Virus record (IMG/VR): IMGVR_UViG_2563366997_000002
Reading direction: 5' to 3' (one strand)
DNA: 21,588 nucleotides
Origin: a virus
Taxonomy: Duplodnaviria > Heunggongvirae > Uroviricota > Caudoviricetes
The notes below the pieces were generated by a model that saw only the letters and a list, made by a program, of their open reading frames with translations, did not search any database and had not been told where the DNA came from. The first letter of the stretch is position 1; each line of letters opens with the position of its first letter. Position numbers and translations under genes: made by a program. This document shows positions 1 to 20,697 of the stretch, piece after piece.

Positions 1-393
1 TCATATTACTGGATAATCATCATCATCCTTCCCTATCCGATTGATAACGAATGTCACTACCCCGACAACTGTAACATCATCCAGGGCCTCACCTTCCAAC
101 GCTTCACCGTCTCGTGTAATAAATGCCCGGCCCATAATTTTTGCAAAATCAGTGCCGCCGCCGTATTGAATTAAAACGGTATCTCCTTGCTTTGGTTTTA
201 CGAAGCAATCCACTACGGCATAGCCGGTTTCTGTTTGTACTATCCGAGTATTGGGGCCGGTACCGCAGAGTGAATCAACGGTCAGACGCCGTTCAACATA
301 GTCAGCAGCTGGCGACGGAAATCCCACGTTATAGCCCTCCGTTTGGGTTGTATAACTGGAACGTGAGCTCATCGCCTTCCTGCGTTGAGACAT
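1..393 (-). CDS. UmuD/ImpA-like S24-family protein (SOS mutagenesis accessory-like)
   Basis: 130-aa ORF whose stop codon is the first 3 bases of the window. Contains GFPSPAADYVE, matching the UmuD/MucA N-terminal cleavage-site region (E. coli UmuD has CGFPSPAADYVE), and a C-terminal VVGVVTFV-type strand pattern like UmuD. The canonical GDSM serine motif is not evident by eye. Nine nt downstream of the preceding small ORF. Confidence 0.6.
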   Translation of the reverse strand: MSQRRKAMSSRSSYTTQTEGYNVGFPSPAADYVERRLTVDSLCGTGPNTRIVQTETGYAVVDCFVKPKQGDTVLIQYGGGTDFAKIMGRAFITRDGEALEGEALDDVTVVGVVTFVINRIGKDDDDYPVI

Positions 394-402
394 CCCGGAA
401 TG

Positions 403-561
403 TCAGTGCTCTATCCACTGGTTAGCCTGGCGCGGTGACCATATCCAGTTAACTTTTGCGAGTTCCCGGATAAAACCGGACGTTGTCACGGTGCGACGGC
501 CATTAGGCTCAATGACAATTGCCTGACGCCAGGCTATTTCGATATCTGAGTTTCGCGGCAT
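403..561 (-). CDS. small hypothetical protein (52 aa), first gene of an SOS-box operon
   Basis: ORF track gives 403..606, but that start would place the LexA box inside the coding region. The internal ATG at 561..559 has a strong SD (GGAGGTG, 5-nt spacer) and lies just downstream of the box. Gene order recalls impC-impA; that is inference. Confidence 0.4.
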   Translation of the reverse strand: MPRNSDIEIAWRQAIVIEPNGRRTVTTSGFIRELAKVNWIWSPRQANQWIEH

Positions 562-579
562 AACTTCACCTCCCGAAAA

Positions 580-599
580 TACTGTTTTTATATACAGTA
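580..599 (-). promoter_or_regulatory. LexA (SOS) box
   Basis: Minus-strand sequence TACTGTATATAAAAACAGTA is a perfect CTGT-N8-ACAG LexA operator with AT-rich spacer, about 20 bp upstream of the 52-aa ORF start. Confidence 0.7.
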
Positions 600-1103
600 G
601 ATTCATTAAGAGATCTGATCAATACAGGTTCCAGCTATCAATCAGGAACACTGAGGAGGAAACCAGTCACCTTTTAGCCTCTGATATTGGTTTCACTTAG
701 TGATTATGTTGTCTATGTGCCAACTATGAACTATCTTTTCTCAAAACCTGCTACTGCAAAATGGATATAAGATGTCACAGACGGACTTGCTGATTGTTGT
801 TTTTACTCTGGGCATTTTAGCCTTTGGCTATTCCATATGGTTCATTTCGAACAGAATACTTTGCTCTATATTTCATAGACTTACAAAGAATATATGAATT
901 GGGATGGTATAGACCCAAATTCATGGTCATTGCCCCTCGACGTCGGAAGGTACTTACAGATCATCTTCGCTCTTAACCTATCACATCGGCACCTACTCCA
1001 TGATGTAACAGCTCAGACCAGAAATATCTGGAAGCTTTAGGCATATTCTTGGAAGATAGACGAGCGCAAAGACGCACACAGCAATGATGTTATGTAGTAT
1101 TTT

Positions 1104-1135
1104 CCCCTTGAGTGTGCCTGCTCAAGGGGGTTTTT
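1104..1135 (+). terminator. putative Rho-independent terminator
   Basis: ccccttgag / loop tgtgcctg / ctcaagggg gives a 9-bp GC-rich stem, followed by TTTTT. The U-tract is present only in the plus orientation. Confidence 0.45.
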
Positions 1136-1150
1136 ATCGCCGTATTGTAC

Positions 1151-1219
1151 TGGCAAATATTTGTAAATAGTCTTCACCCCCACGCCTGTCACATCGGCCA
1201 CACGCGACTGGACAGGCGG
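1151..1219 (-). pseudogene. remnant of a serine DNA-invertase C-terminal HTH (second copy)
   Basis: In frame immediately after the stop of the 1220..1414 ORF, the minus strand reads PPVQSRVADVTGVGVKTIYKYLP. This is about 80% identical at nucleotide level to the HTH segment at 3160..3215 and has no start codon or catalytic domain. Confidence 0.35.
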
Positions 1220-1419
1220 TTAGTCCGGTATGTTTCTCGCGCTACTACTGCTTACGTTAACGTCTGGTAATGATCTAGCGGCGCGACGTAAAGCGGCGTT
1301 GAAAGCAATTATAGTGACCGGCCGGCATTGGTACTTCACACGGTTAGAATGGCTCTGAAATAAAAAAACATCTTCTGGATAGCGTTCTCTTCTACGAGCA
1401 ATGATCCCCTCCACTGGAG
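1220..1419 (-). pseudogene. tyrosine-recombinase-like gene, 3' part (split by IS4)
   Basis: Joining 2846..3079 to 1220..1419 across one copy of the 11-bp target duplication restores a continuous frame (...KSTPPVE-GIIARRRERYPEDVFLF...). The joined protein has an integrase-core-like segment HTGLSAGRLLSIRYDDIDGD...VKS but no downstream HxxR...Y catalytic region. Confidence 0.5.
1409..1419. repeat. IS4 target-site duplication, left copy (CTCCACTGGAG)
   Basis: Identical 11-mer at 2846..2856 directly flanks the other IS4 end. Confidence 0.85.
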
Positions 1420-2845
1420 TAATGCCGATCAGTTAAGGATCAGTTGACCGATCCAGTGGCTGTGTAAGAATCCGGAAACGCTCACTCGTTTCCGGATTTT
1501 TTTATGCACATTGGACAGGCCCTTGATTTGGTATCCCGTTACGATTCTCTGCGTAACCCACTGACTTCTCTGGGGGATTACCTCGACCCCGAACTCATCT
1601 CTCGTTGCCTTGCCGAATCAGGTACTGTAACGCTACGCAAGCGCCGTCTTCCCCTCGAAATGATGGTCTGGTGTATTGTTGGCATGGCGCTTGAGCGTAA
1701 AGAACCTCTTCACCAGATTGTGAATCGCCTGGACATCATGCTGCCGGGCAATCGCCCCTTCGTTGCCCCCAGTGCCGTTATTCAGGCCCGCCAGCGCCTG
1801 GGAAGTGAGGCTGTCCGCCGCGTGTTCACGAAAACAGCGCAGCTCTGGCATAACGCCACGCCGCATCCGCAATGGTGCGGCCTGACCCTGCTGGCCATCG
1901 ATGGTGTGTTCTGGCGCACACCGGATACACCAGAGAACGATGCAGCCTTCCCCCGCCAGACACATGCCGGGAACCCGGCGCTCTACCCGCAGGTCAAAAT
2001 GGTCTGCCAGATGGAACTGACCAGCCATCTGCTGACGGCTGCAGCCTTCGGCACGATGAAGAACAGCGAAAATGAGCTTGCTGAGCAACTTATAGAACAA
2101 ACCGGCGATAACACTCTGACGTTAATGGACAAAGGTTATTACTCACTGGGACTGTTAAATGCCTGGAGCCTGGCGGGAGAACACCGCCACTGGATGATCC
2201 CTCTCAGAAAGGGAGCGCAATATGAAGAGATCAGAAAACTGGGTAAAGGCGATCATCTGGTGAAGCTGAAAACCAGCCCGCAGGCACGAAAAAAGTGGCC
2301 GGGACTGGGAAATGAGGTGACAGCCCGCCTGCTGACCGTGACGCGCAAAGGAAAAGTCTGCCATCTGCTGACGTCGATGACGGACGCCATGCGCTTCCCC
2401 GGAGGAGAAATGGCGGATCTGTACAGTCATCGCTGGGAAATCGAACTGGGATACAGGGAGATAAAACAGACGATGCAACTGAGCAGGCTGACGCTGAGAA
2501 GTAAAAAGCCGGAGCTTGTGGAGCAAGAGCTGTGGGGTGTCTTACTGGCTTATAATCTGGTGAGATATCAGATGATTAAAATGGCGGAACATCTGAAAGG
2601 TTACTGGCCGAATCAACTGAGTTTCTCAGAATCATGCGGAATGGTGATGAGAATGCTGATGACATTGCAGGGCGCTTCACCGGGACGTATACCGGAGCTG
2701 ATGCACGATCTTGCAAGTATGGGACAACTTGTGAAATTACCGACAAGAAGGGAAAGGGCCTTCCCGAGAGTGGTAAAGGAGAGGCCCTGGAAATACCCCA
2801 CAGCCCCGAAAAAGAGCCAGTCAGTTGCTTAACTGACTGGCATTA
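1420..2845 (+). mobile_element. IS4 insertion sequence, complete copy
   Basis: 1426 bp; imperfect terminal inverted repeats (left TAATGCCGATCAGTTAAGG, right end reverse-complement TAATGCCAGTCAGTTAAGC); single 442-aa transposase ORF; flanked by an 11-bp direct repeat. Confidence 0.95.
1504..2832 (+). CDS. insG: IS4 transposase
   Basis: 442-aa [23 protein letters not shown]..., recognised as the IS4-family transposase; it occupies almost the whole IS. Confidence 0.95.
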
Positions 2846-2856
2846 CTCCACTGGAG
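2846..2856. repeat. IS4 target-site duplication, right copy (CTCCACTGGAG)
   Basis: Exact direct repeat of 1409..1419. Confidence 0.85.
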
Positions 2857-3079
2857 GGGTTGATTTAACACGTAGCTCCTTCAGGTGACCCTGTTTTCGT
2901 ATCAGTATCAAGTCACCATCAATATCATCATATCGAATACTCAGCAGCCTTCCAGCGCTTAAACCCGTGTGAAAAATTAACGCCCACAAGTCAGCCCATG
3001 TATCTGAGATGGAAACAAGATTGCTGTTAATAGTTAAAAATTGCTCAAAACTTATTGTTTTCTTACCGTTCACGAACAA
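2846..3079 (-). pseudogene. tyrosine-recombinase-like gene, 5' part (split by IS4)
   Basis: N-terminal 78 codons (apparent TTG start at 3079); the reading frame runs into the IS4 end where a stop occurs. See 1220..1419. Confidence 0.5.
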
Positions 3080-3156
3080 ACCAAACTGTTTTCAAAGCTG
3101 AATGAATTGATTAAGCCAAACGTAACATATCAGGAAAAGTAGTGAAATCTTTGCCT

Positions 3157-3369
3157 TCAAGTCGCCGGGAGGTACTTGTAGATTGTTTTCACGTCCACGC
3201 CTGTCACATCAGCCACCTGCTGCCGGGTAGCGCCGTTCTCCAGCATTCTGCGGCACCGCTCCACCACTTCTTCAGTCATTATCCGGCGGCGGCCGCCGAC
3301 TCTCTCCTGCTCCATCGCTGCGGACCGACTCGGATGCATTCGGCAAATTCTAGGCCGTGATTTTTCCAA
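3157..3369 (-). pseudogene. serine DNA-invertase (Hin/Gin/Pin/Cin family) C-terminal HTH remnant
   Basis: C-terminal 45 aa, GGRRRIMTEEVVERCRRMLENGATRQQVADVTGVDVKTIYKYLPA, aligns by eye with the Hin C-terminal DNA-binding domain. The N-terminal about 140-aa catalytic domain is absent and the 5' end overlaps the upstream 266-aa gene. Confidence 0.6.
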
Positions 3370-4150
3370 TCCTCTCCATCAGATATGCCAGGATGACATC
3401 CAGTGTGCTGGTCCCATATGCATATTTGCCGGGGAAAACCAAACATTCTGACAAAACGGATGTTAACGGAGACACTGAACCATTGCCTGCTCCGCCAATA
3501 CTCATTTTTTGAGACGGGCTATACGCTGGGATTGTATAGCCCGTCACTTGTCGGCTGGTCACTGCAGACTGATCTGACCGCTGGTATGCAATTGCATAGG
3601 ATCCAGCAGCCTTGTTAGAGCACATAACTACAGCGCAGAATAAAGATTGCCCTATATTGTTAGGAGTAAATGCCAGATCGGCCTCGATCCCTCCATTCAG
3701 AAAAATCGGGAATGAACCTGCTGACGTTGTACGAATGCCGACGCCATGAGGTGTGCTTTCCTGGGTTGCGATAACCGCTCTGTCCTGTGGCGTAGCCGGA
3801 AGCGCCCCACCTGGCAGCTGATAGATGAATGCAAAAGTATTGATGTTTGCGTCCATAACCACCGCCGTATCACCAGCCATGCCGGATGCACCGGAGAAAT
3901 TAAGCCCCTGCAAAACAGAACCATTCAGCTTTGTGGATGGCTCGAGGGTCTCCAGTGACTTGAAAAGTCCGCCATCTAATCGGTTAGAGATAGCTACTAC
4001 TTTTGCACCAGACCCCATTTTTAGAAACTCTGTCTTCACTGGTGTCCATACTGATGGGGATAGTTCTGAGATCGCTTTCTCTGCCGCTGTTTGTGAGTAC
4101 ACAGGGAGTAAGGGGTTATTCAGTCCAGTTAGTGTGTAAATCAGTCTCAT
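3350..4150 (-). CDS. hypothetical protein (266 aa), probably tail-associated
   Basis: Starts 7 nt after the esterase-domain gene stop with a GAGGAT SD; Gly/Ser/Thr/Ala-rich composition. No family recognised. Confidence 0.5.
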   Translation of the reverse strand: MRLIYTLTGLNNPLLPVYSQTAAEKAISELSPSVWTPVKTEFLKMGSGAKVVAISNRLDGGLFKSLETLEPSTKLNGSVLQGLNFSGASGMAGDTAVVMDANINTFAFIYQLPGGALPATPQDRAVIATQESTPHGVGIRTTSAGSFPIFLNGGIEADLAFTPNNIGQSLFCAVVMCSNKAAGSYAIAYQRSDQSAVTSRQVTGYTIPAYSPSQKMSIGGAGNGSVSPLTSVLSECLVFPGKYAYGTSTLDVILAYLMERIGKITA

Positions 4151-4159
4151 TTTTTATCC

Positions 4160-6223
4160 TCAGAAAACGTTAATACGAAAAGCGGGGAGCCAGTCGTAAA
4201 GAGTCACGGATGTGTCATACACCCATATGATTCCAGCGGAAGATCGAACACACCCTCTTGCACCAAGAGTCCGCCCGGAAGGTTTTACAGATGCGCCGCT
4301 CTGAAGTGGGTTTTCTGCTGTCGCATAGGAAACGCGCCCAAAACGTCCAGAGGGGGCGGTCGCCAGGTTAATCAGCACGCCCTTGCCGTCCGAGCTGATC
4401 GCGATGCTCGATATAGCAGGTGGAGCACCAGTCTCATCCGTGTAGCTAAAGCCGTAATTGGCCAGACCGGAGGTGTTGATCGTAGTCGTGTCCAGCACCA
4501 GGTTCGTATACGCTGGGACATTGATTTGTATCTGCGTGGGTGAGTTCCACACGAAACTGGTCGGAACCATCCCTGACCAGCCGCTCGTAAACCACTCCTG
4601 GAGAAGCGCTCTCGCCACAGCTGCTCCGCGCCGGTTCTGGCCCGCACACGTCAAGTGCAGACCGTCTGAAATAAAATCGTACTGGTACAAACTATTGACC
4701 AGCCTGAATTGCTCTTTTCCGTGCAATCGCGTCGACGCCAGTCGCGCGTACTGGCCTGTAAATGCACCATGCCCGTCATTGACATACCCCAGCTGGGTAA
4801 TGGCGATAATCGGCGGTTCGTTTTGACCCGTTCTTGCGATGATGTCGCTGGTGATTTGTCTCTGGTACTGCCTCATCCGTGATTCATACATTCCTTCTCG
4901 TAATCCTGACCAGTCCTCGTCGGACTCTCCCTGCATCCAGTCAACGCAGAGAACAATCGGCAGCCAGCCGCGTGCTTTACAGGCCGTTACGCAGTCTTCG
5001 ATTGAATCGAGCAGATACTGATATACCTGGTTACCCCGTTTCTGGTACTCGTAAGCCTGACCAGACTGCGCACATACGATTGATAGCGTGCGCGGCATGA
5101 TTCCGGTAGCTGCAGCCATATCGCGAATGAAGGTGTTCGCGAGGCCGCTTGCGGCCGTTTCTTTATCTGTCCCACTTACTGCCTCAACCAGTGGCACCAG
5201 AGTAGTGCTGCGTGTCCCTGTACGCCTAACCCCGCCGCTGAGCATGAAAGCGTTATCAGGATATATCGGCGTTGCTGCGACAATGGTTTGATCGGCGTCA
5301 GGACAATATCCTCGAGCGTTGGATTGCCCAGCAGTCACAAAGATAAAACATACAGGCACTGTCTCTGAGTAGGGGTACACAGTAGACCCTGACAAATGAA
5401 GTCCATACTCAGGGAGCTGGTTGGCATCATCGTCGCCACCACCACCGCCATTTCCGTTATTAACAGCTACCAGGCCACCGTCTGAGTAAATCCAGTGCTT
5501 CCCACCAACCGTATAAGCTTCAACGATCTGGTTTGTGGTTGAATCAACCGTCATCCGCCACACTTTTTCACCGCCAATAAACTGCGGTATAGAACCCTCC
5601 CGGCCCAGCGCATAGAGTTCGGATTCTTGTTGGGTTAAAAGTTCGTAATATTTTCCGTCAGGACCGATTTGAATTAATCTGCCGCTTGTATTTAAAAATG
5701 GAGCCACGCGGGAAGTCTCCGGATCATATGCTGCCAGGGTCACGCTGTCTGGCGATACCTGGTATGCGTAGTCGTCACGAACCATCCGCCGTCCGGTTGG
5801 CTGCAGCGTTCCAGCGAGGTTGATATACTCATCGGCCAGAGAGCTTCCGTCCTGACTGCGGACATAGGTTGTTGAACCTGCCGGAATATTCGCAATATCC
5901 GCCTGCGCCGCCGCCAGCGTCATGTACTGCCGGCTGAGAGGGATCAGGTTTTGGCGGGCTTCATCAATAACAGCGTCGGTAGCAGCTGCCATTTTTTTAG
6001 TAGCCCCAATTATCGTATCCTGGGCGTTACCAAAACGATCTATAAAAGTATCGCTTTCGCTGTTCAGGAAATCATCGTACGCCAGGGCGTTATCATTCAG
6101 ATCCTTCATGCTATTTGAAGGTCTTGGATTGCCGGTATTATATCTTTTGTCCATACCTGTTCCTGTCTTCATCTTTTCAATGAAGCAATTAAGATTGACG
6201 CCCCGCCCCTTCAGGGCTAACAT
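4160..6223 (-). CDS. tail-region protein with SGNH/SASA-type esterase domain (putative receptor-modifying tailspike or fibre)
   Basis: Up to 687 aa. Central domain has an SGNH-hydrolase nucleophile block VTAGQSNARGY and a distal DGLH block, as in sialate-O-acetylesterase-like proteins; a fibre-like N-terminal region and a C-terminal beta-rich region flank it. The true start is probably an internal Met (6172, 6154 or 6109), because 6218..6223 overlaps the -10 element of a divergent promoter. Confidence 0.7.
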   Translation of the reverse strand: MLALKGRGVNLNCFIEKMKTGTGMDKRYNTGNPRPSNSMKDLNDNALAYDDFLNSESDTFIDRFGNAQDTIIGATKKMAAATDAVIDEARQNLIPLSRQYMTLAAAQADIANIPAGSTTYVRSQDGSSLADEYINLAGTLQPTGRRMVRDDYAYQVSPDSVTLAAYDPETSRVAPFLNTSGRLIQIGPDGKYYELLTQQESELYALGREGSIPQFIGGEKVWRMTVDSTTNQIVEAYTVGGKHWIYSDGGLVAVNNGNGGGGGDDDANQLPEYGLHLSGSTVYPYSETVPVCFIFVTAGQSNARGYCPDADQTIVAATPIYPDNAFMLSGGVRRTGTRSTTLVPLVEAVSGTDKETAASGLANTFIRDMAAATGIMPRTLSIVCAQSGQAYEYQKRGNQVYQYLLDSIEDCVTACKARGWLPIVLCVDWMQGESDEDWSGLREGMYESRMRQYQRQITSDIIARTGQNEPPIIAITQLGYVNDGHGAFTGQYARLASTRLHGKEQFRLVNSLYQYDFISDGLHLTCAGQNRRGAAVARALLQEWFTSGWSGMVPTSFVWNSPTQIQINVPAYTNLVLDTTTINTSGLANYGFSYTDETGAPPAISSIAISSDGKGVLINLATAPSGRFGRVSYATAENPLQSGASVKPSGRTLGARGCVRSSAGIIWVYDTSVTLYDWLPAFRINVF
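6195..6223 (+). promoter_or_regulatory. putative sigma70 promoter for the HTH/acyltransferase cassette
   Basis: TTGACG, 17-bp spacer, TAACAT, located 9-33 bp upstream of the first plus-strand starts. Confidence 0.4.
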
Positions 6224-6231
6224 CGCCTTAC

Positions 6232-6519
6232 GTGTTTAAACGGTTAAATAAGAGAATGATTTTAATAAATAAATACACCCCTCCAACGCAGGAAGATTTA
6301 GCCAGACTGAAATCCGCACTAAATTACTCCGGAAACCAAATGGCAGGGCTCGCAGGTGTAGCCAGCGATAGCCAATGGCGGAAATACACTGGCGGAGAGA
6401 GCCCCAGGGTAATGTCAAGACACATACTGTTTTATATTGCAGCTCAGCTTGTTCTGTCTGATGAGCAACTTAACAATGTAATAAATAAAATGCGCGATAT
6501 TGGCGCGGAGATAAAATAA
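6232..6519 (+). CDS. small XRE-like HTH protein (putative regulator), coupled to the acyltransferase
   Basis: 95 aa from a GTG start (87 aa from ATG at 6256). The segment LNYSGNQMAGLAGVASDSQWRKYTGGE resembles a Cro/C1-type helix-turn-helix. Its stop overlaps the acyltransferase start (ATAATG). AT-rich. Confidence 0.5.
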   Translation: MFKRLNKRMILINKYTPPTQEDLARLKSALNYSGNQMAGLAGVASDSQWRKYTGGESPRVMSRHILFYIAAQLVLSDEQLNNVINKMRDIGAEIK

Positions 6520-7610
6520 TGCTTGGCCTAATAAGGTTTTTTTTGGCATCGTGCGTCATTGCTTTTCACTTAACGGCTCGCATACCTGCACTTGGCAACT
6601 TTGCAGTGAATTGCTTCTATGTTATTAGTGGTTTTTTAATAACATACATTTTGCATGAAACATACAAGTTCAACTTCTCTATGTTTTGGAAAAATAGAAT
6701 ACTGAGGTTATTCCCGGCATATATATTTTTTCTCGTCATGGGCTTTCTTATTATAAAATTAATTCCATCCGCAAAGGAATTCCACTCAAACTGGACAGGC
6801 AATTTCTTACCTGGAGATTTATTAGGAAACCTCTTAATCTTCCCCTGGGCTTTCCTTTCTGATAATGCTGTAGCAAATCCATTCGGTGCCTTTTCATCCA
6901 TTTATCACTTTGCTATTGATGGTAATAGATTCAGAATAGTCACATCATCATGGTCAGTGGGTGTTGAGATAACATGTTATTTTTTATTGTGGCTTTTCAT
7001 AGCCCGAAATAAATTTACAGCCATTACGTCGATTCTGCTTTCACTGCTTTATCATGCTTACGTATATGTAGTACACCATTCTTTTGATATGGCGTATTTC
7101 CCATTCCTTGCTGCAACACTTCCTTTTAGCATGGGTTCTCTGGGTTATTTTGCCCATAGAAAGTTCAAAGCTATGTATCTTTCTCCACACAAAGCTTTTT
7201 TAATAACATTTATTTGCATCGGGATTTTTATTACCAATTGGCATTTATATACAATTAATCCATTAGGTCAGTACAACATAATACTTTACTACACCAATAA
7301 TGTAATAGCATTGTTTACAACCCTGGTATTATTAAAAATAAAGACAAACATACATCTTGAGAAAATACTCAAGTGGTTTGGTGACCTGGCCTATCCAATT
7401 TTTCTTTGTCAATATTTTGGTGGATTTCTAGCATGGCTTGCTATTGGTGGTGAAAATCGTGGCTTATCCATCTTTTTATTAGGCTACCCAATATCAATTG
7501 CACTTGGGATCGTTTGTGTAATATTAATAGACAAGCCACTAATTAAAATTAGAGCAAAAATAAGGGCGGACGCTCAAAGCAAAAATAATCAGGAAAACTC
7601 TTCAAGGTAA
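6519..7610 (+). CDS. acyltransferase family 3 (OafA/Oac-like) integral membrane O-acyltransferase
   Basis: 363 aa, strongly hydrophobic with multiple predicted TM segments. N-terminal region FHLTARIPALGNFAVNCFYVISGFLITY is typical of AT3 acyltransferases. Markedly AT-rich relative to flanks; opposite strand to the structural genes. Confidence 0.8.
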   Translation: MLGLIRFFLASCVIAFHLTARIPALGNFAVNCFYVISGFLITYILHETYKFNFSMFWKNRILRLFPAYIFFLVMGFLIIKLIPSAKEFHSNWTGNFLPGDLLGNLLIFPWAFLSDNAVANPFGAFSSIYHFAIDGNRFRIVTSSWSVGVEITCYFLLWLFIARNKFTAITSILLSLLYHAYVYVVHHSFDMAYFPFLAATLPFSMGSLGYFAHRKFKAMYLSPHKAFLITFICIGIFITNWHLYTINPLGQYNIILYYTNNVIALFTTLVLLKIKTNIHLEKILKWFGDLAYPIFLCQYFGGFLAWLAIGGENRGLSIFLLGYPISIALGIVCVILIDKPLIKIRAKIRADAQSKNNQENSSR

Positions 7611-19374: not shown

Positions 19375-19899
19375 TCATTTTGCCGTTCGAATCGCTTCCT
19401 CAATCGCCCTACTCAGCGCGCCGGGCATTAAGCCGGCTGCCATTGACCGTGAGCGGTTCATGTAGTCAAGCGTAGGCGTAACAGGTAGAGCATCACCAAA
19501 CCTCACCAGCAGCTTAGGAGCACGCTGTTTCCGCTTTGGTCTGCGCGTACCATTCGCTGAGCGCCGGGCTCGTTTCTTTTTCGCCTTCTTCGGTTTACGC
19601 CTCTGCCAGACAGCATCAACACCATTGACCTCACCTACGAACACATTCGGCTTCGCTTTCAACTGCGACAGCTTATTTCGCGGCATGTTGCCGTATTTGT
19701 TCAGTTTGATGTTCTTTGGATTGAGCAGCGCCTGGCTGTTCAGTTTATGTTCACCACCAAATTCAAAGGGTTCGAGATATTCAGCGGCGACATCGCGCAC
19801 AAAGACTTTTGCGCGGAGGTTGTTCTTTCTGGCGCCAGCAGAGCCCACTGAGTTGACGGTGAACGGCGTCGGCGATTCCAGTTTTCGCCCCAGTGCCAC
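19375..19899 (-). CDS. hypothetical highly basic protein (174 aa)
   Basis: Long ORF between the integrase remnant and the cos-like region, same strand as the late operon; Lys/Arg-rich tract RRKPKKAKKKRARRSANGTRRPKRKQRAPK; no Cys. No family recognised; could be spurious. Confidence 0.35.
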   Translation of the reverse strand: MALGRKLESPTPFTVNSVGSAGARKNNLRAKVFVRDVAAEYLEPFEFGGEHKLNSQALLNPKNIKLNKYGNMPRNKLSQLKAKPNVFVGEVNGVDAVWQRRKPKKAKKKRARRSANGTRRPKRKQRAPKLLVRFGDALPVTPTLDYMNRSRSMAAGLMPGALSRAIEEAIRTAK

Positions 19900-20495
19900 C
19901 TTTTGCGCTGCGGCGATATCAGCGTGGTTATGTACCAGGTAATCCGTGTGTTGGTGTCGATAAGTTTCCTAAACCCCAGCGCGACCGCTACATAACTGAT
20001 GAAGAGTACATAGCTATCTTCACTCATGCGACACCTGCAGTTAAAGCCGCGATGGAAATTGCGTATCTTTGCGCTGCAAGGGTATCTGATGTTCTTAAAA
20101 TGAACTGGAATCAGATTCTTGATAAAGGAATTTTCATACAGCAAGGTAAAACTGGTATTAAACAGATCAAAGCCTGGACTGAGCGTCTTAGTGCGGCTGT
20201 GGATATTTGCAGGGAATGGGGACAGGATGGCCCTGTTATCAGGACAATGTATGGTGAGCGTTATTCATACAAGGGATTTAATGAAGCATGGAGAAAAGCG
20301 AGAAACGCGGCTTCTGAAGAACTTGGTAGGCCACTTGATTGCACCTTCCATGATCTAAAGGCTAAAGGGATCTCAGACTATGAAGGATCTGGCAGGGATA
20401 AGCAAAAATTCAGTGGTCATAAGACAGAATCACAGGTACTTGTTTACGACAGGAAAGTTAAAATCAGCCCAACGTTGAACAAGAAAATGAGATGA
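19893..20495 (+). pseudogene. tyrosine integrase, catalytic C-terminal domain only (5'-truncated)
   Basis: 200-aa ORF with an integrase catalytic-domain pattern (HDLKAKGISD ... SGHKTESQVLVYDR with the nucleophile Tyr). The frame is closed by a stop at 19860..19862 and no upstream frame encodes an integrase N-terminal domain. Ends 112 bp from the tRNA 3' end. Confidence 0.8.
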
Positions 20496-20607
20496 TTCTT
20501 TGGCGTCGGAGCATGCTTCGGCGCTAGAATTTTTCTCAGTGGATTTTCTCAATTTTTCTCATCGGGATGCAGGTCACTGAAAGGGAATGCTGTAAGTGTT
20601 TGAATAG

Positions 20608-20697
20608 TGGCGGAGAGAGGGGGATTTGAACCCCCGGTAGAGTTGCCCCTACTCCGGTTTTCGAGACCGGTCCGTTCAGCCGCTCCGGCATCTCTCC
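20608..20697 (-). tRNA. serU: tRNA-Ser (anticodon CGA)
   Basis: The reverse complement is a 90-nt class II tRNA (GGAGAGATGCCGGAGCGGCTGAACGGACCGGTCTCGAAAACCGG...GGGGGTTCAAATCCCCCTCTCTCCGCCA) with a 7-bp acceptor stem, CGA anticodon, long variable arm and encoded CCA. Confidence 0.93.

Follow-up and report, generated by a model that had tools for sequence, protein, structure and literature searches.

Stacked 3' remnants of Gin/Cin-family invertase genes at the right end of a defective prophage

We have identified three stacked remnants of DNA invertase genes in a 21,588-nucleotide (nt) stretch of tailed-phage DNA (IMG/VR record IMGVR_UViG_2563366997_000002), referred to here as the window. The remnants, designated copies A, B and C, lie on the minus strand at the variable right end of a defective prophage, between the tail-fibre genes and umuDC. 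They are very probably non-functional scars, the 3' ends of three different alleles of a Gin/Cin-family invertase gene that were left behind by repeated replacement of modules at this end of the prophage. The locus descends from a tail-fibre inversion system of the Gin/Cin/Hin/Pin type, of which the helix-turn-helix (HTH) alone remains. This reading is carried by the homology of the copies to intact invertases, by relatives in which a complete switch or an intermediate state of the stack survives, by truncation points that differ among lineages, and by a sharp mosaic boundary inside the gene.

Remnants and the interval between them

The elements of the locus are listed below in the order of the minus strand.

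3157..3369, minus strand: copy A, an invertase gene truncated at its 5' side (Pfam HTH_7, tblastn)
2857..3079, minus strand: 5' part of a gene for a 140-amino-acid (aa) protein, ORF140, cut by IS4
1420..2845, plus strand: IS4, 1426 bp (terminal inverted repeats and target duplication)
1220..1419, minus strand: 3' part of ORF140, ending ...SSSSARNIPD*, which joins 2857..3079
About 1133..1207, minus strand: copy B, about 23 final codons of another invertase allele (tblastn and alignment)
1020..1135, minus strand: spacer downstream of copy B, with a terminator-like hairpin at 1103..1130
About 927..998, minus strand: copy C, the most decayed invertase 3' remnant (local alignment and translation)

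By homology, copy A is identified as the C-terminal third of an invertase of the Gin/Cin/Hin family. Its 70-aa open reading frame (ORF) matches the resolvase HTH domain of Pfam, HTH_7, at 3163..3294 (E = 1.9e-9; 37.9 bits, cut-off 23.8), and aligns with the DNA-binding domain of Hin (1hcr; E = 2.9e-6) and with residues 125-181 of Mu Gin (4m6f). The invertase-derived portion, at about 3157..3345, corresponds to residues ~122-182 of the intact protein. When the invertase of an intact relative was used as a tblastn query, residues 122-180 were placed on window positions 3342..3166, and residues 1-121 had no match anywhere in the window, so that no catalytic domain is left. The N-terminal serine-recombinase domain (Pfam Resolvase, PF00239) is absent from all three copies, for which Pfam gives HTH_7 only; for comparison, the pseudogene of a relative matches Pfam Resolvase with E = 1.6e-42. 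Copy A begins immediately after the stop codon of an upstream gene that encodes a 266-aa protein. It is already public knowledge as an annotated pseudogene, the RefSeq (PGAP) label of this DNA being 'helix-turn-helix domain-containing protein, incomplete, missing N-terminus'. For copies B and C, which are likewise fragments of pseudogenes, there is no annotation.

A repeat search pairs copies A and B over 44 nt in direct orientation, with 84% identity (1158-1201 and 3173-3216; spacing 2015), and their local alignment scores 31, against 8.7 +/- 1.3 for 500 shuffles. By tblastn, copy B represents invertase residues 164-186 (window 1201..1133). Its codons read VADVTGVGVKTIYKYLPVQYGDK..., and just the final 16-23 residues are kept (E = 0.061). 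The two copies end differently: copy A terminates in LPAT* (asterisks denote stop codons) and copy B in LPVQYGDKKSP*, which leads into the terminator. These are referred to as A-type and B-type tails. A sequence-only reading of the window had described two degraded HTH segments of a Hin/Gin-family invertase in direct orientation on the minus strand, both devoid of a catalytic domain, and the alignments, the recombinase-type HTH assignment and the tblastn results all bear this description out. That reading had missed IS4, copy C and the 140-aa gene between the copies.

Copy C sits about 210 bp downstream of copy B. Aligned locally with copy A, it reaches a score of 22, where shuffles give 8.2 +/- 1.2, and its translation (..GADVIG*ERR*SVSTFRR..) contains in-frame stops. 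It consists of an A-type tail and a few bases beyond the former stop codon, and less decayed counterparts occur at the same position in loci L003, L005, L007 and L008. SX45, a relative with an intact invertase, was considered as the direct ancestor of copy C and rejected, since the tail alone aligns and the downstream DNA differs. The spacer that separates copies B and C (1020..1135) is homologous to intergenic DNA 3' of a 238-aa gene inside the invertible segments of SX45 and E. coli 5CRE51. Beside its hairpin lies an invariant 22-mer, ATTGCTGTGTGCGTCTTTGCGC (minus strand; complement at 1064..1085 on the plus strand), which is found again downstream of tail-fibre-associated genes within those invertible segments. 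The 22-mer and hairpin have no match in Rfam and look like a reused terminator or intergenic module.

The segment at 1420..2845 is IS4, which is defined by a length of ~1.4 kb, terminal inverted repeats, a DDE transposase and a target duplication of 11-13 bp. Here the terminal inverted repeats are 18 bp long, the transposase ORF (1504..2832) encodes 442 aa, and an 11-bp target duplication, CTCCACTGGAG, stands at 1409-1419 and 2846-2856. This copy is ~98-99% identical to loci annotated as 'IS4-like element IS4 family transposase'. In a search of 5,426 complete E. coli genomes, IS4 was found at this site in none, and the relatives show an empty site. Together with the target duplication, IS4 makes up 1437 bp of the 2015-bp spacing, leaving 578 bp as the original distance between copies A and B. 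The spacing of about 2 kb given by the sequence-only reading is a correct measurement that IS4 has inflated.

Removal of IS4 and one target duplication joins 2857..3079 and 1220..1419 into the 140-aa ORF140, which is uninterrupted in all relatives; in E. coli HS and its relatives it is annotated as 'site-specific integrase' (WP_024186700.1). Against PHROGs, ORF140 matches phrog_19751 (E = 5e-46) and, weakly, the integrase family phrog_1 (E = 2.4e-8). It has no match in Pfam, Phage_integrase included, or in NCBIfam, and its classification comes from PHROGs and fold comparison alone. An AlphaFold2 (AF2) model (pLDDT 81, pTM 0.79) predicts a tyrosine-recombinase catalytic-domain fold for the product: the best Foldseek matches are an S. 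aureus integrase, lambda Int, XerA, XerH and Cre, with a probability of 1.00 and query TM-scores (TMq) of up to 0.76 (0.74-0.76 for the best matches), and the model covers part of the target domains only (target TM-scores, TMt, of 0.3-0.64). ORF140 would stop short of the part of the fold that holds the catalytic tyrosine, and so would encode an incomplete catalytic domain; the missing part presumably carries the tyrosine nucleophile. The family has 161 homologues, most of them in prophages of Klebsiella and Raoultella; they are 138-144 aa long, share invariant motifs and all end just past an SSxSAR motif. The ratio of nonsynonymous to synonymous polymorphism (pN/pS) is ~0.22 against homologues that are 66-69% identical in protein, which indicates that ORF140 has been a real gene. 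In phage HK544, a homologue of ORF140 (gp25) adjoins attP. A MAFFT alignment hinted that the homology of copy B to the invertase extends into the end of the 140-aa gene; this was rejected, as the ORF140 family has the SSxSAR C-terminus as a feature of its own, in HK544 gp25 and the homologues at 43-69% identity as well.

Intact and decayed relatives

The key relatives were obtained from flank searches in complete genomes. E. coli 5CRE51 (locus L015) has an intact 189-aa invertase whose natural 3' end is the copy-B-type tail. The protein matches Mu Gin with E = 3e-71 and is 67.8% identical to P1 Cin and 64.3% identical to SfMu Gin, in agreement with the family named by the sequence-only reading. 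Window positions 1198..576 are 93.8% identical to the 3' end of this gene and the DNA downstream of it, and the similarity begins exactly at copy B. Copy B is 88.9% identical to the 5CRE51 tail over 63 nt, followed by 93.8% for 627 nt downstream, as compared with 84% over 44 nt for copy A. The 5CRE51 invertase is itself A-like 5' of the core shared by the alleles (90.5% identity to window 3323..3176) and B-like 3' of that core.

Next to the 5CRE51 invertase is a 5.5-kb segment that holds oppositely oriented tail-fibre genes. At each of its ends is a copy of one 26-bp site, TTCGCCCAAACGAGGGTTTGAGCGAA; the two copies are identical and inverted relative to each other (L015 1422-1447 and 6971-6996; CAAAC..GTTTG-type palindrome), and none would be expected by chance. 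Each site is followed 23 nt downstream by the start codon of a whole tail-fibre gene. What inversion exchanges behind the tipJ operon would thus be complete genes, and not C-terminal gene ends as in Mu and P1. With an intact invertase, crossover sites and alternative fibre genes, 5CRE51 carries what its sequence predicts to be a complete switch, and this switch is followed by copy C and umuDC. An intact invertase with a single tail is found in SX45, MB07152 and Klebsiella phage KPP5665-2. Both A-type and B-type tails occur on intact invertases elsewhere.

The corresponding parts are missing from the window. The generic gix/hix core pattern AAACCNNGGTTT has one match in the window, which is the chance level, and the 26-mer of 5CRE51 has no match there with three or fewer mismatches, nor with eight or fewer. 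The window also has no alternative fibre gene in opposite orientation: copy A shares the minus strand with the fibre gene and the 266-aa gene, and the inverted tail-fibre genes that relatives possess are not found between them. In gin, cin and hin, the Fis-dependent enhancer lies in the 5' part of the gene, and the window is without this part of the invertase gene. Since the catalytic domain, crossover sites and alternative fibre gene are all absent, the locus is no longer a member of the inversion systems, though it is descended from one. The sequence-only reading had found no convincing hix/gix site and had offered a deleted tail-fibre inversion system or stacked decayed elements as explanations. 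The first is supported by the complete version of the system that close relatives with the same flanking DNA carry, as in 5CRE51, and the second holds too, the copies being different alleles.

Intermediate states of the stack survive in other genomes. SCU-308 has a nearly full-length A-type pseudogene followed by ORF140, copy B and copy C, and no convincing inverted crossover sites were found in it. Truncated copy A, ORF140, copy B and copy C occur in this order in E. coli HS, Klebsiella phage ST846-OXA48phi9.2, Escherichia phage vB_EcoS-716R3, E. coli YJ4 and two Raoultella genomes, and EC7 has a truncated copy B and copy C only. The IMG/VR prophage L024 shares with the window the junction of the 266-aa gene and the invertase, and has one truncated hybrid copy with a C'-type tail; this tail and the DNA downstream of it are those of the third copy in phage phi9.2.

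The point of 5' truncation varies by lineage, falling at invertase residue 8, 109, 111, 122, 146, 154 or 164, and the upstream cargo varies as well (acetylesterase fibre, SGNH hydrolase fibre, retron-type reverse transcriptase (RT), group II intron RT and hypothetical genes). On their right-hand side, the remnants are followed by DNA that is conserved across lineages. Retron-type or group II intron RT genes stand beside the remnant at 3929..5413 of L005 and 2697..4184 of L007 (both upstream) and at 7200..9087 of L024 (downstream); their presence in this slot marks the site as a hotspot for variable cargo. In the window, the place of the 5' part of the invertase gene was taken by a fibre module at 3350..6223, made up of the 266-aa gene and a gene for a 687-aa fibre protein. 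The N-terminal ~150 aa of the fibre protein are 47-58% identical to both of the alternative tail-fibre proteins in the invertible segment of 5CRE51. The junction of the 266-aa gene with invertase residue 122 recurs in nine IMG/VR loci, and all homologues of the 266-aa gene have either this junction or no invertase nearby. The pre-deletion state of the module (266-aa gene, inverted gene and intact invertase) was not found in complete E. coli genomes or in IMG/VR.

A mosaic boundary runs through copy A. When the window is compared with L002, L003 and L005, mismatches crowd the alignment as far as position 3211, where the shared core starts, and almost none follow, with divergence falling from 10-20% to ~1%. 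Against L003, there are 23 mismatches in 113 nt upstream of 3211 and 6 in ~570 nt downstream. The allele differences in the HTH part are mostly synonymous (pN/pS ~0.11), which suggests that the alleles diverged while functional and were later joined to a nearly clonal downstream module. Work on lambdoid phages and defective prophages has shown that mosaics are formed mainly by recombination that is guided by homology, accepts highly diverged partners and can be traced at the borders of fragments (De Paepe et al. 2014, PMC3945230).

The genes on either side of the locus are the following.

4160..6223, minus strand: tail-fibre protein, 687 aa, with a SASA/sialate-O-acetylesterase domain (Pfam SASA, E = 1.8e-11)
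3350..4150, minus strand: 266-aa protein (ORF) of unknown family, which forms the tail-fibre module with 4160..6223
403..606 and 1..393, minus strand: UmuD-like gene in two fragments (phrog_3469, UmuD-like, E = 7e-49; phrog_3893)

The UmuD-like fragments, labelled 'DNA polymerase V, frameshifted' and 'S24/S26 peptidase' in RefSeq, are the conserved right-hand anchor of the region, downstream of the stacked remnants; intact umuDC is found at the equivalent position in E. coli 5CRE51 and phage ST846-OXA48phi9.2. In the remainder of the window, which is a prophage, there are head genes of the lambda type and a baseplate. At the far end are a truncated integrase, a tRNA gene (20611..20697, the sole match in an Rfam scan) and mtfA. 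The 200-aa truncated integrase ORF beside the tRNA gene and mtfA (19893..20697) is the other end of the defective prophage, and in complete E. coli genomes the same DNA sits between yodB and mtfA. E. coli HS and 15 further records carry this DNA at 99.9-100% identity, all without the insertion sequence. The acetylesterase fibre gene is separated from the gene of a glycine-rich tail protein by two ORFs on the opposite (plus) strand at 6232..7610, one for a 363-aa membrane protein of the acyltransferase family and one of 95 aa; they look like an inserted surface-modification moron.

Origin of the stack

What the sequences show is a set of homologies, intermediate states in relatives, truncation points that vary and a mosaic boundary; from these we infer an order of events and a recombination mechanism for the stack. 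In this phage family the invertase is the last gene of the late region, beside an invertible segment with alternative tail-fibre genes. New fibre or cargo modules would enter from the left with their right junction inside the resident invertase, and the 3' end of the resident gene would survive downstream. The first resident may have been an invertase with an A-type tail, which is now copy C. In a second step, a module comprising an invertase with a B-type tail and the terminator would have displaced this gene, and such a state is kept in 5CRE51. An A-type invertase followed by the 140-aa gene would then have displaced the B-type gene, as seen in SCU-308. Fourth, the acetylesterase fibre module would have replaced the catalytic two-thirds of the gene together with the crossover sites and the alternative fibre gene, giving the state of E. 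coli HS. Finally, IS4 would have entered the 140-aa gene, a step found in the window only, among the records examined.

It is hypothesized that the conserved HTH-coding core, GATGTGACAGGCGTGG, served as a patch for homologous recombination between diverged alleles. Recombination at this core would account for the sharp mosaic junctions located there, and also for the variants with one, two and three tails, through unequal recombination between stacked copies. The A-type and B-type tails are also those of ordinary intact alleles, and copy B is nearer to the 5CRE51 tail than to copy A; both observations point to the copies as 3' ends of successive resident invertases.

Several points weigh against this account. 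The right-hand junctions of at least two of the replacements, those upstream of copies B and C, are non-homologous joins, and no pair of donor and recipient was found that fixes these two junctions. Copies B and C also start within ~30 nt of the same point of the gene, which random junctions do not predict, although truncation points are widely scattered in other lineages. The order of events follows from parsimony over about 20 loci and not from a dated phylogeny.

We consider it very unlikely that the stack arose by site-specific insertion of a cassette, in which an ORF140 element with an invertase tail of its own would have entered the 3' end of a resident invertase, in the manner of e14 at icd, leaving copy A as an attL-like junction, copy B as an attR-like junction and copy C as an earlier scar. 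The 578-bp unit is compact and bounded by direct repeats with an identical 16-nt core, and relative to 5CRE51, whose invertase is A-like upstream and B-like downstream of the core, the insertion looks precise. The replacement tail leaves the reading frame of the invertase intact, and ORF140 itself combines a predicted tyrosine-recombinase fold and purifying selection over long distances (pN/pS ~0.22) with a homologue that adjoins attP in HK544. However, the homologues of ORF140 at 43-69% identity (L011-L014 and HK544 gp25) have no flanking invertase remnants, and ORF140 ends before the part with the catalytic tyrosine and fails Pfam Phage_integrase. Depending on the lineage, the left boundary of the remnant lies anywhere from residue 8 to residue 164. 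The cores differ in some of the copies, and the A-type and B-type tails belong to ordinary alleles of intact invertases. A related proposal, to which we attach similarly little probability, is that the HTH patch at the invertase 3' end is a dedicated landing or exchange site for small cargo units, where the 578-bp ORF140 unit would have been moved site-specifically, perhaps by a full integrase in trans, with the stacked tails as attL/attR-like scars.

Retained function of copy A is highly improbable. The HTH-only product might still bind DNA, for instance by occupying crossover sites that incoming phages bring, or might work as a small regulatory protein. Although the gene has been truncated at its 5' side in at least five different ways, no lineage examined has a stop or frameshift in the HTH frame. 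The HTH is preceded by an in-frame ATG (MTEEVV...), and allele differences are mostly synonymous. The synonymous bias may nevertheless predate the truncations, and in so short a segment a stop-free frame is weak evidence. Copies B and C are clearly decayed, and RefSeq treats copy A as a pseudogene. A promoter scan of 850..3450 gave a single promoter-like site, which lies inside IS4 on the plus strand, and none that serves copy A. The 40-aa form that would start at the in-frame ATG lacks the arginine-rich arm before the HTH, whereas the longest ORF keeps GGRRR.

Tandem duplication in situ, by which one invertase 3' region would have been copied by slippage or unequal crossing-over and then diverged, would fit the closeness and direct orientation of the copies and the existence of one-, two- and three-copy variants such as unequal crossing-over yields, but its probability is very low given the greater similarity of copy B to the 5CRE51 tail than to copy A, the distinct tail types (LPAT* versus LPVQYGDKKSP*) and the unrelated fillers of the two units (ORF140 versus the terminator spacer).

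Successive replacement of resident invertases makes the locus a case of ordinary prophage decay and mosaicism, with little significance beyond annotation (the fragments B and C, and a 140-aa gene that is split in this strain). With the switch gone, the tail-fibre specificity of the prophage is fixed. What is least ordinary about the locus is the tidy stack of three tails with its surviving intermediates, together with the conserved tyrosine-recombinase-like mini-protein encoded between them. The survival of intermediate states in other genomes makes the locus a tidy example of how the right ends of prophages gain and lose modules. The locus is also a marker of a site with variable cargo, which in relatives includes retron-type and group II intron RTs.

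Comparison with known systems

In the Gin system of Mu, the Cin system of P1, the Pin system of e14 and the Hin system of Salmonella, all of which use small serine recombinases, as in the relatives of the window, the invertase is associated with an invertible segment with 26-bp inverted sites; in the relatives, it ends the tail-fibre region beside that segment. The window differs from these systems in having 3' fragments only. A further difference concerns the sites of 5CRE51, which stand upstream of whole fibre genes and not inside fibre coding sequence, whereas the crossover sites of Mu and P1 lie within it.

Cryptic prophages of E. coli K-12 carry pin-type genes and remnants of them. The window resembles these invertase pseudogenes in having a decayed Pin/Gin-type gene in a defective prophage, and it is unlike them in having a direct-orientation stack of three tails, each from a different allele, with one interval cut by IS4.

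Likeness to e14 at icd, and to islands that target tRNA genes, is seen in the direct repeats of a gene 3' end that flank an inserted unit, and in the proximal copy that keeps the reading frame. In contrast to those elements, no functional integrase accompanies the unit, distant homologues of ORF140 are without the repeats, and the boundaries are not fixed. An element that duplicates its attachment site would be expected to have flanking tails throughout its family; here they occur only in the ORF140 lineage of 95-99% identity, and not at the homologues of 43-69% identity or at HK544 gp25.

The mosaics produced by relaxed recombination (PMC3945230) differ from the stack in the window, whose own joins must have been non-homologous and are known here from sequences alone. 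The locus is like those mosaics in the sharp change of divergence at a short conserved patch, and in the joining of the same right-end module to varied upstream alleles and phage backbones.

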